Part shown: positions 8,332-13,984 of the stretch, piece by piece
How the letters are laid out: each line of letters starts with the position of its first letter
How positions within the stretch are numbered: position 1 is the stretch's first letter
Source of the DNA: Patescibacteria group bacterium
Lineage (GTDB): Bacteria > Patescibacteriota > Microgenomatia > Levybacterales > UBA12049
Length of the DNA: 64,000 nt
Direction: 5' to 3'
Assembly (NCBI GenBank): GCA_035946335.1
Contig: DASYZL010000019.1
Location: 12,414-76,413 of the forward strand
Notes under the pieces: generated by a model
What the model saw: the letters and a program-made list of their open reading frames with translations, nothing else
Told to the model about the DNA's origin: nothing
The model's database searches: none
Position numbers and translations under genes: made by a program

Positions 8332-8598
8332 TTATACCGATTCTATATCAAGAAAAATAGAGACTTTATTTTTTAGTACTTTTATAACTCCCCTTTGAAT
8401 AGGTATCGTTTTTTTGTCAACCTTTGTTATAGATAATATCACCTGATTTTTTATTAAACAGATAAAATTTGCGTGCAACGGTAATACATCGAACACCCCT
8501 CGTTCATTGTATGACGTTACCGCATAGACACTCCCCTGAAAAAGAGTATTCTCCGGATTTTTAATAGTAACAGATAGATTATTGCTATCTATTTGCAT
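8332..8598 (-). CDS. atpC: F-type ATP synthase epsilon subunit.
   Basis: 88 aa. ...GVFDVLPLHANFICLI... resembles the epsilon N-terminal beta-sandwich. It is the last gene of the atp operon, directly after atpD. Confidence 0.7.
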   Translation of the reverse strand: MQIDSNNLSVTIKNPENTLFQGSVYAVTSYNERGVFDVLPLHANFICLIKNQVILSITKVDKKTIPIQRGVIKVLKNKVSIFLDIESV

Positions 8599-8606
8599 AT
8601 AGTACT

Positions 8607-9986
8607 TTATATTTTGATAGATTCTAAACTCTTAATAAATAAGAACTTTTCCGCAGGTACTCCGTCGTATTTTCCCTCTAAAATTGCACTCATATCAGCA
8701 ATAACCGTTTCCAAATGAATGTAGTCACCTGGAACATGGGTCTGATTCGCAACGGTAAAGATATTCTGTGACATATAATTTCTGATAATTCTTGATCTTC
8801 TGTATATCTTTTGATTTTCAGCAGTCAACTCTGCCTCCCCGATCAGCGAAACAATCCGATCCAAGCTCGCTGCTTCTTTTAAAATTCGTTGCGCAGACAA
8901 AAGCGCATCCACATGCTGTTTTCCAAGAATATCCTCACGAGCAGCAGATGAATTTGATGAAAGCAGGTCAATTGCCGGAAAACGCCCTTCCTGATAAACT
9001 TTTCGCGACAGAACAATACTGACATCCAGATACGGAAAAACAGATCGCACGCCATAGTCTGTCACATCGTCTGCTGGAACATATACTGCTTCAAATGTTG
9101 TGATGCTACGGTCTTTCGTTGAGTAAAGCCGTTCATGGATGGAAGCCATTTCTGATGCTATTGTTGCCTGATAACCACCTTCCGAGGGAATACCGTTCAG
9201 AAGCGTTCCGATTTCATATCCTGCCTGGGCAAAACGATACATATTATCGATAAAAAAGAGAACATTTTTCTTTAAACTGTCACGAAAATATTCTGCTAAC
9301 GCTACGCCTGTGTATGCTGTTCGGAATCGAATAGCCGGATTTTCTCCCATGGTCCCAAATATCAGACTTACGTCGGGAAGAACGCCGCTTTCAGAAAGAT
9401 TTTCGTAAAGCTCTTGCCCCTCGCGTATACGCTCTCCAACACCTGCGAATATGGAAACATTTTCCTTCTGGTTCGTCGTCACAATATTATGAATAATTTC
9501 TGTCAACACAACTGTTTTTCCTACTCCTGCACCGCCAAAGAAACCAACTTTACCACCTTTGATGAGCGGAGCAAAGAAATCAATTGCTTTAATACCAGTG
9601 AGAAGCAGTGTATCCGGAATCGCAACATCCTCAATAAGTGCTTGTGTCTTATATATAGAGATAGTTTTTTTTGCATTGATTTTTCCCTTCCCGTCCAATG
9701 GCTGACCAAACACATTCATGATCCTCCCCAAGACCTCTTTGCCGGCGGGAATTTGCAATGTTTTTTTAGTGTTAATGACACGTTGTCCGCGATGAAAGAG
9801 ATTCACCGGACATAATGCGAGACACGCAAATAAACCTTCATTCGTTGAAGCAAAGACTTCAAGTGATGCTTTATCGTTTTCTTCAAGTATTAAGAGGTCA
9901 TGGACACGTGGTTGCTCCTGAGAAAAAGTAACCTCAACAATCTCTTCTTTTATTGCTGTAATGACACCGCTGTTTTTTATTTCCAT
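8607..9986 (-). CDS. atpD: F-type ATP synthase beta subunit.
   Basis: 459 aa with P-loop GGAGVGKTV, and [20 protein letters not shown]. These are canonical beta motifs. Confidence 0.92.
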
Positions 9987-10852
9987 AATGCTGCTCCCGC
10001 AAGACGATCACGCTGTTTTTTGTCTTTTTCCATTCGCTTTGCATAGTTAAGCGAAACCTTGAGTTGGACTAATTGCCTCTGTGCAACTTGTCCAACGCGT
10101 TCCATAGTAACAACCCGGGATGCATAGAGCGCAAGATCTGACTCATGGAGTGTTTGCTTAAATAGAGATGAAAAGATTTGTGTCTCAAAAAATGATAGAA
10201 CATCCTGGATTGTCGGTTCAAACAGAAATGCATATTGTTCTTTCTCTTCTGTTGCCTTCTCTTCCATTGGAACTTCACCGGAAATTGAAGAAGATTGCGG
10301 TTCTTGTTTTAACACATTGAGAAATTTTCCGAAATATACTTTCACATTTTCGTACATGACAAGCTTCGCGGCAATCTGATTGAGCACATCAGGAGAAAGA
10401 TGCTCCTTGTCTGAGACAAAGTATGTATACTCCTTCCCGGGAAAAGCTGATTCAAAAAAATTTTTTCCCATTCTTCCGATTATCACAACATCTGCTGTGT
10501 TCTGTTTCATTGCCAAGGAGAATGTTTGCAATACCTTGGAAACGATATCTCCATAAAGCGCATCGTTTGCTGTCAACAAAACAAGGACATCTTTTCCGTT
10601 TTTTTTCAATCGTAATGCTTCAATCGCATCTGTTTTCTTCTTTTTTTTCACCATCATTTCGAGGAAGTTTTGATATGAGGTTCTCGTATCAACAAACACT
10701 TCTGACAACTCTTCTGCAAACGTTCGTGAGTTTATTACTGATACCCGTTCTTTCTGCATATTTGCCAAAGCAATCTCCTGGAATGCTTGAGCAAGCTCCC
10801 GCATAGTTATTGTTGTGTATATATCCTGTTGAACACTTTTTATTTTTGCCAT
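9977..10852 (-). CDS. atpG: F-type ATP synthase gamma subunit.
   Basis: 291 aa. It sits between alpha and beta, with an N-terminal ...[10 protein letters not shown]... segment and a C-terminal helix typical of gamma. It overlaps atpD and atpA by a few nt. Confidence 0.75.
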
Positions 10853-12306: not shown

Positions 12307-12312
12307 AGCATT

Positions 12313-12558
12313 TTATTCTGCAATCCCAAGTTTTTTTGCAATAGTATAGTCCTTATGTTTTCCATTGTACTCGATAATTGCTCCTGCAATAAGATTTGTA
12401 TCTATGGTAATATCCAGTTGCACTGGCTGATGGATTTCTTCTGTAAACCAGTCTCTGATTGATGCAAGCTGTTTTTCCGTTGGATGAAACGCCAAAGTGA
12501 TATGTGCTACTTGTGGCATTGCTTTACCTGTTTGAGGAGGTTTTTCTATAACAGTCAT
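12313..12558 (-). CDS. atpH: Truncated ATP synthase delta (OSCP) subunit. Only the C-terminal domain is present.
   Basis: 81 aa. ...QLDITIDTNLIAGAIIEYNGKHKDYTIAKKLGIAE aligns to the delta C-terminal domain (..[27 protein letters not shown]..). Its start overlaps the atpF stop in an ATGA arrangement, which suggests translational coupling. Confidence 0.65.
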   Translation of the reverse strand: MTVIEKPPQTGKAMPQVAHITLAFHPTEKQLASIRDWFTEEIHQPVQLDITIDTNLIAGAIIEYNGKHKDYTIAKKLGIAE

Positions 12559-13220
12559 AGGAAAATACCATCTTCCTTGGCTTCTTCTAATGCTTCCTGG
12601 AGTAATGCCTGGTGATAGGAGGCAGGAATACTCTTTTTCATTACTTCCCGATACGATTTTACCACCAGCTCATTTACCTCAGCTGCTGCTTTTGATACTT
12701 GATCCTTTTTGTATTGTTCAATCATAGTGCGCGCTTCGGCCAACTCCTCATCGATAAATTGTTGTAGTGAACTTTTATTATCTATGGTTTCTTTTTGTAA
12801 ATCAGCGAGAGCGGCTGCAAGCAATACCTGACTTTTTTCCTGTATGGACTGTAAGGTAACAGTGAGGTTTCTCTTGTATGCCTTCAGATATTCTGCTGAA
12901 ACAAGAGAAAGTGAGTCTATGTCTTTCTGTAATAATTCCTGAACTGCTTTATCGAGTGTATTATGCACATCTGTTTTTGTCTGACCTGTTGCTGCGAGCA
13001 TTTGAGCAGATAAATCAGCTGCTTTTTCCACTATATTTTCTGCCTGATTCTGCCCGCTTTGAAGAATAGATTGGTAGTTATTTAATGCATGTGCTTCTTT
13101 ATCCTGAAACGTTTTCTCTTTTTTTAATAAAACGTAGACAAATAAACCTAAAGAAACGAGAACAATTAATCCAAAAAAGAAAAAAATATCCGTAATAAGC
13201 GGTGAAGTAAAAATATTCAT
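12555..13220 (-). CDS. atpF: ATP synthase b subunit (one N-terminal TM plus a long helix).
   Basis: 221 aa. N-terminal TM: IFFFFGLIVLVSLGLFVYVLL. The remainder is predicted coiled-coil, in the usual position between c and delta. Confidence 0.7.
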   Translation of the reverse strand: MNIFTSPLITDIFFFFGLIVLVSLGLFVYVLLKKEKTFQDKEAHALNNYQSILQSGQNQAENIVEKAADLSAQMLAATGQTKTDVHNTLDKAVQELLQKDIDSLSLVSAEYLKAYKRNLTVTLQSIQEKSQVLLAAALADLQKETIDNKSSLQQFIDEELAEARTMIEQYKKDQVSKAAAEVNELVVKSYREVMKKSIPASYHQALLQEALEEAKEDGIFL

Positions 13221-13984
13221 ATCCGTAATATCAGGTATCCCATGAAGATACCTGTTAATAATATTATGATAACCATAATGACGTTTAGCAATATAGAAAG
13301 TTCAATCATTTGGCCAGCTAAAGGGTTTCTACCGATTGCTTCAATACCCCGATGGATAGTTTTTGAAAAAATAAGAAATCCAAGACCAAACGATGCTAAT
13401 ATAACAAGAAGAGCAACGAGTAGCTTCAGTGCGACAACGGGATCTTCATATGTTGCAATTTCGCTTAGATTAAGCACATCGAGAAACGGTATGACAACAG
13501 GACTGGCAAATTGTTGGAAATGAATATTTATGCTTACCGTAATCTGCCTGACCTCATTTTTAGATGCGAAGGAAACAGGGTTGACAGACGCTCCGATAAC
13601 ATATCCACTTGTCACTGCTTTCTGACCTACTCCAGGAATTGTTGACGTCGTAATGAAATCACCTTTTTTTAGGTTACCATTGATTCCCGATACGTTAACG
13701 ACAGCATCACCAATATTAATAACCGGATAAGTTTTTGTTGCTCCAGGAACTTCAATGGTAATTGCAGGATTGGCTATAATCACACCTGTTATTAGCTGAT
13801 CATAAGCTTTATTACTCAAGTGATATCCTTGGGGTGAAAAGGAAACTATATCTCCAACGGCGATATTTTTATCGGCTAAAGGGAAATAGTTTGCGATACC
13901 TATTGAAGAAGCAAGTATTTGAACTGGTAGAATAAAACTTAACAACAGAATAAATAAAAGACATAAACCAATACGTTTTCCCAT
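13217..13984 (-). CDS. atpE: ATP synthase c-subunit (C-terminal ~65 aa hairpin) fused to a ~190-aa N-terminal signal peptide plus extracytoplasmic domain.
   Basis: The C-terminal LIFSKTIHRGIEAIGRNPLAGQ...LLTGIFMGYLIL aligns with c-subunit TM1-loop-TM2 (PS3: LIVSRTIEGIARQPE...). The N-terminal part has a signal peptide (MGKRIGLCLLFILLLSFILPVQILA) and the GD.VS...IPGVG domain also found in the two giant proteins. Confidence 0.65.
   Translation of the reverse strand: MGKRIGLCLLFILLLSFILPVQILASSIGIANYFPLADKNIAVGDIVSFSPQGYHLSNKAYDQLITGVIIANPAITIEVPGATKTYPVINIGDAVVNVSGINGNLKKGDFITTSTIPGVGQKAVTSGYVIGASVNPVSFASKNEVRQITVSINIHFQQFASPVVIPFLDVLNLSEIATYEDPVVALKLLVALLVILASFGLGFLIFSKTIHRGIEAIGRNPLAGQMIELSILLNVIMVIIILLTGIFMGYLILRI

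Follow-up and report, generated by a model that had tools for sequence, protein, structure and literature searches.

In this stretch of 64,000 nucleotides (nt) from a Patescibacteria group bacterium of the Levybacterales (NCBI GenBank assembly GCA_035946335.1, contig DASYZL010000019.1, positions 12,414 to 76,413; the whole stretch is called the window below), we found that positions 8332 to 13984 hold a seven-gene operon that, judged from its sequence, is F-type yet divergent. With about even confidence, we read this operon as a conserved, remodelled and ion-blind F-type ATPase of Microgenomatia- and WWE3-type Patescibacteria that may perform work at the cell surface. As a variant of the F-type ATPase, the operon is conserved and largely undescribed; an unusual operon of this kind was noted in 2013.

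The first gene of the operon (13217 to 13984, minus strand) encodes a protein of 255 amino acids (aa) that combines a predicted signal peptide, a predicted extracellular beta domain and a c-type transmembrane (TM) hairpin. It was deposited as a hypothetical protein (exact match), and a few of its homologues carry the Joint Genome Institute (JGI) name "F0F1-type ATP synthase membrane subunit c/... subunit K". As a single sequence, the protein reaches no c-subunit model of Pfam or NCBIfam. Its family is conserved in length; a word-indexed search returned 110 homologues and an exhaustive search returned 921 clusters at 50% identity (E ≤ 1e-30). When we compared the family profile with the sequences in the PDB, the top seven matches were all F-type c subunits (E 0.003 to 0.7), and the alignment is in register at the cytoplasmic loop between the two helices (EAIGRNPLA in the family, AIGRNPE in 9itj). 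An hhalign comparison of the family with five canonical c subunits gave 79% probability in a matching register, which we take as supporting evidence only. The AlphaFold2 model, which like the residue counts below rests on 106 homologue sequences, has a mean predicted local distance difference test score (pLDDT) of 91 and contains a hydrophobic helix (residues 4–17), a beta domain (30–157), a short helix (167–180) and a helical hairpin (182–217 and 223–254). By profile and predicted fold, we take the 255-aa protein to be c-like only.

Within the hairpin, the cytoplasmic loop has been kept and the ion-binding site has not. In the loop EAIGRNPLA, R219 is invariant and E215, N220, P221, L222 and A223 are invariant or nearly so; several glycines of the family are invariant as well. 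In contrast, the column that would hold the ion-binding Glu or Asp (position 239) is occupied by I, V, L or A, and not one of the 106 homologues has an Asp or Glu at positions 229 to 255, the second TM helix (TM2). The c-like protein, that is, lacks the membrane-embedded Glu/Asp found in the C-terminal helix of a canonical subunit c. Because the loop is invariant while the ion site is gone, the strongest constraint appears to fall on the part of the hairpin that would contact gamma and epsilon, as the loop of subunit c does in canonical enzymes. A first-pass annotation of this DNA had described a minimalist ATP synthase, with a proton path that could not exist unless atpB were encoded elsewhere. 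Since the membrane carboxylate is missing in all 106 homologues, the proton path is predicted to be absent whether or not atpB lies elsewhere, and an ATP synthase, however minimal, is the wrong frame for the operon. Elsewhere in the hairpin, roughly at the depth of the lost ion site, there are conserved polar or aromatic residues at four positions (nt ~13423–13271): Y188 is present in 100 of the 106 homologues, S198 in 83, N234 in 92 (with His in a further 10) and T238 in 63.

The N-terminal part of the c-like protein is predicted to be secreted. The protein begins like a signal peptide, with MGKRIG, a hydrophobic core and a putative cleavage site between ILA and SS, and a Sec signal peptide is predicted at aa 1–26 (nt 13984–13907, minus strand). 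It is followed by the beta domain (aa 28–160, nt 13903–13505), the short helix (aa 167–180) and the TM hairpin (aa 183–255, nt 13438–13220), all on the same strand. Positive residues (K208, H211, R212 and R219) lie around the loop. Because of these loop-flanking charges and the signal-peptide-like N-terminus, the beta domain is placed outside the cell, in the N-out orientation of subunit c, and the signal peptide is probably cleaved. In the structural model, the extension has the fold of phage fibre-base and capsid-decoration domains; a weak Pfam match to XM1_gp53 and a DUF2190 annotation on one homologue are consistent with a phage-type fold. The domain is itself well conserved, for example in the motif GDxITTSxIPGVGQKA. 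The first-pass annotation had called this gene an N-terminally extended subunit c; the extension is real, but the protein is merely c-like and what extends it appears to be a secreted beta domain.

The catalytic parts of F1 are intact. Subunit alpha (488 aa, 10840 to 12306, minus strand as for all genes of the operon; PF00006, E 3e-60) keeps the P-loop GDRKTGKS and the arginine finger in SITRVG, and its N-terminus is about 14 aa short of the canonical one (residue 13 pairs with residue 27 of 2qe7_A). Subunit beta (459 aa, 8607 to 9986; PF00006, E 1e-64) has intact catalytic residues, keeps the motifs GGAGVGKT, GVGERIREG and DNMYRF, and reads EAELTAEN in the DELSEED region. The P-loops, catalytic Glu and Arg finger of the alpha3beta3 head of canonical F1Fo are all present. 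So is the central stalk: gamma (291 aa, 9977 to 10852; PF00231, E 2.5e-20) is full length, and epsilon (88 aa, 8332 to 8598; PF02823, E 4.6e-10 over residues 8–83) consists of the N-terminal beta sandwich alone, with the C-terminal helical domain missing; the epsilon of relatives is 81 to 92 aa long. When scored with NCBIfam models, no subunit reaches its equivalog cut-off: beta scores 450.7 against 462.85 (atpD), alpha 367 against 484 (atpA) and 395 against 554 (PRK13343), gamma 61 against 194 (TIGR01146), delta 27 against 57.5 and epsilon 39 against 67.

The seven genes follow one another in the order c-like, b, delta, alpha, gamma, beta, epsilon, at the positions first annotated, and they are tightly coupled. 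The ATGA overlap reported at the b/delta junction is present, and there is another at the c-like/b junction. The alpha/gamma and gamma/beta overlaps are real too, although they span 13 and 10 nt when the stop codons are counted rather than the 9–12 nt originally given. An independent Logan assembly has the identical gene structure, including the 81-aa delta. Upstream of the operon there are, as had been noted, only ORFs (open reading frames) of 62 and 93 aa, the longer with one weak hydrophobic segment. Neither has a family match or is conserved in relatives, and we ruled them out as hidden subunits. A scan of positions 7900–14800 for promoters and terminators found sites to be rarer than in shuffled sequences and is uninformative.

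To see how widely the operon occurs, we mapped the c-like family in one genome per GTDB species and fetched the best 80 loci with flanks of up to 10 kb (numbered with the prefix L below). The family is present in 379 GTDB species genomes, and the titles of the 80 loci include Levy-, Roizman- and Daviesbacteria, Microgenomates and WWE3. The gene order c-like, b, delta, alpha, gamma, beta, epsilon is kept in nearly all 80 loci, and the c-like proteins share only 35–47% identity across species. The combination of features that the first-pass annotation considered unusual is therefore conserved in hundreds of species; only the half-size delta is lineage-specific.

To look for subunit a, we gathered from the window and from the flanks of the 80 loci all ORFs in which at least four TM segments are predicted. 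None of the 40 polytopic ORFs in this sample (the c-like protein excluded) matches ATP-synt_A (PF00119), including those in the 64 kb of the window; the matches were to prepilin peptidases, ComEC, transporters and similar proteins. Two 6-TM ORFs of the window have no Pfam match (63930–63256 and 24411–25049) and find no a subunit among PDB sequences; with no match in either database and no RLxxN-type motif seen by eye, we rejected them as divergent a subunits. When all ORFs within 3 kb of the operons were clustered, no unknown conserved membrane protein emerged that could stand in for a: only the family of giant proteins described below is widespread, and the 229-aa ORF upstream of the operon in L006 is soluble. 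A subunit a with PF00119 and the essential Arg is thus missing from the window and the flanks, in agreement with the earlier claim that no a-subunit gene lies nearby.

The peripheral stalk is recognisable and reduced. As a single sequence, the 221-aa b protein (12555 to 13220) gives only noise with the b models of Pfam and NCBIfam. A profile of 57 family members finds subunit b as its best match in the PDB (9o19_X, E 1.2e-7; 9itj_U, E 1e-6; Bacillus PS3 b, E 2e-5), and the alignment covers the N-terminal TM segment and the C-terminal motif VLGKxLxxxxHExLI. With one N-terminal TM helix, a long coiled coil and this conserved C-terminal motif, the protein is a genuine, divergent b that is elongated in its coiled coil. 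Family members are about 190–300 aa long, so 221 aa is a normal length and not the unusual one that had been suggested; the longer b ORFs, as in L015, are longer in their coiled coils only and offer no substitute for a. It had also been asked whether the extra residues of b derive from the N-domain of delta. We rejected such a b-delta fusion: over its full length b aligns with its counterparts in relatives that encode delta separately, as a protein of about 150 aa, its C-terminus pairs with the C-terminus of canonical b, and the extra length is internal coiled coil.

Delta (81 aa, 12313 to 12558) matches positions 104–165 of the 172 in the OSCP profile (PF00213, E 1.3e-7). Alignment to four relatives of 150–160 aa confirms what had been proposed, namely that only the C-terminal domain is left: the N-terminal ~70–80 residues are absent here. 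Across the family, delta is about 150 aa long and its profile matches OSCP/delta (E 8e-10). Because that profile aligns only from about OSCP residue 70 on, the N-domain of delta seems to be already reduced family-wide and to have been lost in this genome. In the delta family hidden Markov model (HMM), this delta covers positions 81–141 of 154, as compared to ~5–145 in nearly all of the 80 loci, and only in L060 is delta cut down comparably. In a canonical peripheral stalk, a b dimer is joined by a full-length delta, whose N-domain binds the N-termini of alpha and whose C-domain binds b. Of these parts, this genome retains b (by profile) and the C-domain of delta, together with an alpha that is ~14 aa short at its N-terminus. 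The half-size delta is probably a lineage-specific part of a wider erosion of the stator, and we propose that the stalk, with no subunit a to hold any more, is eroding. In two loci, L070 (9923–14676) and L078 (1282–3242), alpha comes next after the c-like gene, and the locus encodes neither b nor delta.

The beta domain of the c-like protein recurs in giant surface proteins. A gene for a tail-fibre-like protein of 1722 aa (2998 to 8166, minus strand) begins 165 nt downstream of epsilon on the same strand, and we consider its product a candidate partner of the operon. The protein has an N-terminal TM segment, repeats, a Kelch propeller and one copy of the beta domain (aa 1304–1439, nt 3850–4257), which is 37% identical to the N-domain of the c-like protein over 70 aa by BLASTP (E 1e-7) and is found by the N-domain HMM at E 1e-25. 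The same domain is present in the second giant of the window (2671 aa, 31777–39792; domain at aa ~1990–2104, HMM E 2e-17) and in operon-adjacent giants of a dozen other loci. We counted as members of the giant family ORFs of at least 400 aa, often 1,000–3,300 aa, whose N-termini have either a helix-turn-helix (HTH)-like segment and a TM segment or a TM segment followed by the motif "VLA...FNIPAxFN". Of the 48 loci that have both flanks, 33 have a giant-family gene no more than 1.5 kb away from the operon, a raw count within this sample. These genes are found upstream in 38 of 69 loci, mostly in divergent orientation, and downstream in 10 of 59. In the clustering of ORFs within 3 kb, every other neighbour family is confined to about 12 loci or fewer.

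Many of the upstream giants start with a MerR/HTH_17-like HTH (LSIQEAAxILGVSTKTLRRWE...), followed by a TM segment and then by thousands of extracellular residues (for example L015 2–9523, L030 1–4275 and L072 2–8671). A DNA-binding-type cytoplasmic domain on a giant surface protein is an odd combination.

When we compared the operon to known systems, canonical F1Fo (atpBEFHAGDC) was alike in gene order from c onwards, in the F1 motifs, in having homologous b, delta, gamma and epsilon subunits, and in its RQP/RNP-type loop. In contrast to the canonical enzyme, there is no a nearby, the hairpin is without the carboxylate and the GxGxGxG motif, the hairpin protein carries a signal peptide and an extracellular domain of 130 aa, epsilon has no C-terminal helices, alpha is shortened, the N-domain of delta is reduced and b is elongated. 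The N-ATPases, or alternate F1Fo enzymes, are marked by alt_F1F0 alpha, beta and epsilon subunits and by atpQ/atpR, and have both a and c. Scored with their models, the operon falls below the cut-offs (344 against 750 and 406 against 752, with epsilon at E 0.12). Reduced symbionts can have incomplete rotary ATPases, as Nanoarchaeum equitans has in its A-type enzyme. In the ProAD survey, c/K subunits without the essential Glu/Asp are flagged as "non-catalytic" (PMC11738941). These cases resemble the operon in that parts for ion coupling are missing; they are, however, sporadic or simple losses, whereas here the family is large and conserved and has gained an extracellular domain.

An operon in WWE3 RAAC2 has been described in one paragraph, which leaves its direction and ion open (Kantor et al., 2013; PMC3812714). 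Its authors likened the putative c to a transmembrane protein that is encoded with the ATPase genes of the OP11/WWE3 genomes ACD38 and ACD24 (PMC3812714). WWE3/OP11-type genomes carry the c-like family, and the operon of Kantor et al. is very probably the same system, likened here by way of the paper's description. That paper reports neither the missing carboxylate nor the extracellular domain nor the linkage to giant proteins.

In Mollicutes, the surface MIB-MIP system depends on the Type 3 F1-like X0 ATPase, and the Type 2 enzyme (G1-ATPase) drives the giant gliding proteins of M. mobile (2026 PLoS Pathogens, PMC12994834). Each of the two clusters includes a gene for a protein that has a signal peptide, an extracellular region and, at its C-terminus, two TM helices; the alpha of both is without its N-terminal helix (PMC12994834). 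The likeness to our operon is that these systems are F1-derived, have no a/c proton path, energise surface proteins and occur in genome-reduced, host-dependent bacteria (PMC12994834). The 255-aa protein matches the layout of MMCAP2_0577 and MMOB1650, with signal peptide, extracellular part and two TM helices, a likeness in architecture alone; unlike the Mollicutes systems, its hairpin is still recognisably c-like. The Mollicutes clusters, of seven genes, also differ in having a 12-TM protein, a small cytoplasmic protein, no b or delta and another gene order. We found no 12-TM ORF beside the operon, and scores with the NCBIfam models for Types 2 and 3 are 256 against a cut-off of 520, 404 against 570, 368 against 600 and 341 against 850. 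Because the alpha and beta scores are far below these models, the 12-TM protein is missing, and b and delta are present, the operon is not a member of the Type 2 or Type 3 families. By analogy, the mycoplasma F1-like X0 ATPases would be its closest functional counterparts.

How the enzyme might work can be outlined as follows. The c-like hairpins would form a ring docked to gamma and epsilon, and F1 would run solely as an ATPase. Its rotation or conformational cycle would pass through the ion-blind ring to a crown of external domains, and the output would be mechanical work at the cell surface rather than an ion gradient, so that the energy of ATP would become available in a compartment that lacks ATP itself. 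The adjacent giant tail-fibre-like protein, with its paralogous domain, is the likely client and may be moved, tensioned or assembled (as in trimer assembly). A further reading, which we put forward tentatively and hold to be possible rather than probable, is that the operon represents a second lineage of F1-derived surface motors, either independent or of ancestral type, in which the crown grips, rotates, tensions or templates trimers of the giant fibre, perhaps together with Pam pili, that CPR (candidate phyla radiation) cells would use to hold or attack their hosts. If so, the system could be an intermediate between F1Fo and the mycoplasma F1-like X0 and gliding motors, since it has kept b, delta and a hairpin that can be recognised as c.

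This reading is favoured by the composition of the operon, the intact catalytic motifs, the absence of acidic residues from TM2, the lack of an a-subunit gene in the window and flanks, the spread of the family over 379 species genomes, the presence of the beta domain in giants, the synteny with giant genes, the mycoplasma precedent and the variant loci L019/L048, L049 and L029 described below. Several observations weigh against it. Only 11 of the 25 giant-family ORFs with complete C-termini hold the beta domain, a share that would be higher if split arrays were merged. The giant family was delimited by iterative BLAST on repeat-rich proteins, and its synteny with the operon could stem partly from shared ancestry. 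The beta domains of a c-like protein and a giant from the same locus are no more alike than those of cross-locus pairs; with no excess of same-locus similarity, we rejected co-evolution or gene conversion of the c-like N-domain with the adjacent giant. For a motor that transmits torque, it is also awkward that L070 and L078 are without b and delta and that delta is cut down in this genome, unless F1 is held in some other way.

Three other explanations have to be set against this one. An ordinary proton or sodium F1Fo, with a encoded elsewhere and a c that is merely divergent and extended, would fit with F1, b and delta being recognisably F-type and with a beta that scores just under the atpD cut-off; an atpB elsewhere is conceivable, given that our searches covered the window and flanks of up to 10 kb. 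We nonetheless regard it as highly improbable. The essential Glu/Asp position is hydrophobic and TM2 is free of Asp and Glu in every homologue, no PF00119 protein is encoded in the window or beside the operon in related species genomes, all F1 subunits fall under the NCBIfam equivalog cut-offs, and the closed WWE3 RAAC2 genome is reported to have no recognisable a, b or c (PMC3812714). A non-canonical transporter, in which an ion or small solute passes along the polar cluster of S198, N234 (or His) and T238 and the b helix or an unknown protein replaces a, would explain why polar residues are conserved at about the level where canonical enzymes bind the ion and why a b with a TM helix is retained in most genomes. 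However, no carboxylate-less c-ring is known to transport, the TM region of b varies in sequence, and the conserved extracellular domain and the giant synteny would be left unexplained. Carboxylate-less cases are, moreover, the ones labelled "non-catalytic" in the ProAD survey (PMC11738941), and we think a transporter improbable.

The operon could also be a relic, either a set of genes decaying after the loss of a or a membrane-tethered ATPase without mechanical output, with the giant synteny a coincidence. The cut-down delta here and in L060, the missing b and delta in L070 and L078, the split alpha genes of L022, L041, L042 and L053, the cluster without alpha and beta in L029, and the missing co-evolution signal with the giant-protein domain would all be expected under decay. 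Decay is hard to reconcile, in contrast, with an architecture that is kept over 379 species genomes while the c-like proteins have diverged to 35–47% identity. The invariant loop and glycines, the intact catalytic residues, the tight start/stop overlaps and the well-conserved extracellular domain speak against it too, and a futile ATPase would be costly in genomes of ~1 Mb. A relic is therefore unlikely in our view, if less so than the preceding two, and we continue to favour an ion-blind ATPase that works at the cell surface.

According to reviews, nearly all Patescibacteria have an F-type ATP synthase and no respiratory chain, and the debate is whether the enzyme scavenges protons from the host or runs in reverse. 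Because this rotor has no means of binding an ion in the canonical manner, this debate may be beside the point for at least 379 species genomes (labelled mostly Microgenomates-type and WWE3). Metabolic reconstructions in which alpha, beta and gamma suffice to score "F-type ATPase present" would misjudge energy conservation in these organisms. If it is indeed a surface motor, the operon would be a natural example of F1 torque redirected outside the cell, parallel to the ATPases of mycoplasma gliding and MIB-MIP, and a concrete candidate for the powering of surface appendages in episymbiotic CPR cells. The Fo-derived parts are retained, and the evolutionary route is therefore testable. The ion-blind rotor, the phage-like extracellular domain, the linkage to giant proteins, the stator erosion and the mycoplasma parallel appear to be new in the searchable literature, in which we found no "F1-like ATPase" in Patescibacteria.

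Among the related loci, we found several variants of the operon. In L055, a second c-like gene (6494–7279) lies directly after gamma in convergent orientation. In two distant relatives, L002 (10775–12469) and L005 (10784–12511), a phosphoglycerate mutase (iPGM) gene stands between c-like and b. Two metagenome-assembled genomes (MAGs) have two complete operon copies each (L009 and L033 in CAYQEE01, L019 and L048 in CAYVAJ01), and in the second of these a giant gene adjoins each copy. A lone c-like gene lies beside a giant gene in L049 (WWE3, 2656–3678), with no F1 genes within 10 kb. In L029 (662–2672), c-like, gamma and epsilon are together and alpha and beta are missing from the cluster; the components of the rotor have remained linked. 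In L022, L041, L042 and L053, alpha is broken up into two adjacent ORFs, which could reflect frameshifts, assembly errors or real pseudogenisation. About half of the operon-bearing GTDB-representative records are titled "uncultured Gammaproteobacteria bacterium" (bulk third-party annotation, TPA, assemblies; L009, L011, L012 and L015 among them), and from gene content and nearest relatives these titles look like mislabels.

Elsewhere in the window, positions 24411–31044 hold a cluster of secreted proteins with weak WxLIP_PGBD-like matches and C-terminal TM anchors (members at 25728–26744, 28203–29285 and 30172–31044, minus strand), and the 2671-aa giant follows it. We tried to match the cluster to the solved Pam pilins by sequence, and the search against the PDB gave no Pam match. 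Upstream of the operon, the stretches 14729–15977 (plus strand) and 15974–16438 (minus strand) hold a gene pair for a DsbA-like thioredoxin and VKOR, divergent from the operon, and after it a nucleoside diphosphate kinase-like ORF. The DsbA-like/VKOR pair indicates extracytoplasmic disulfide formation in an organism that is rich in giant secreted proteins.

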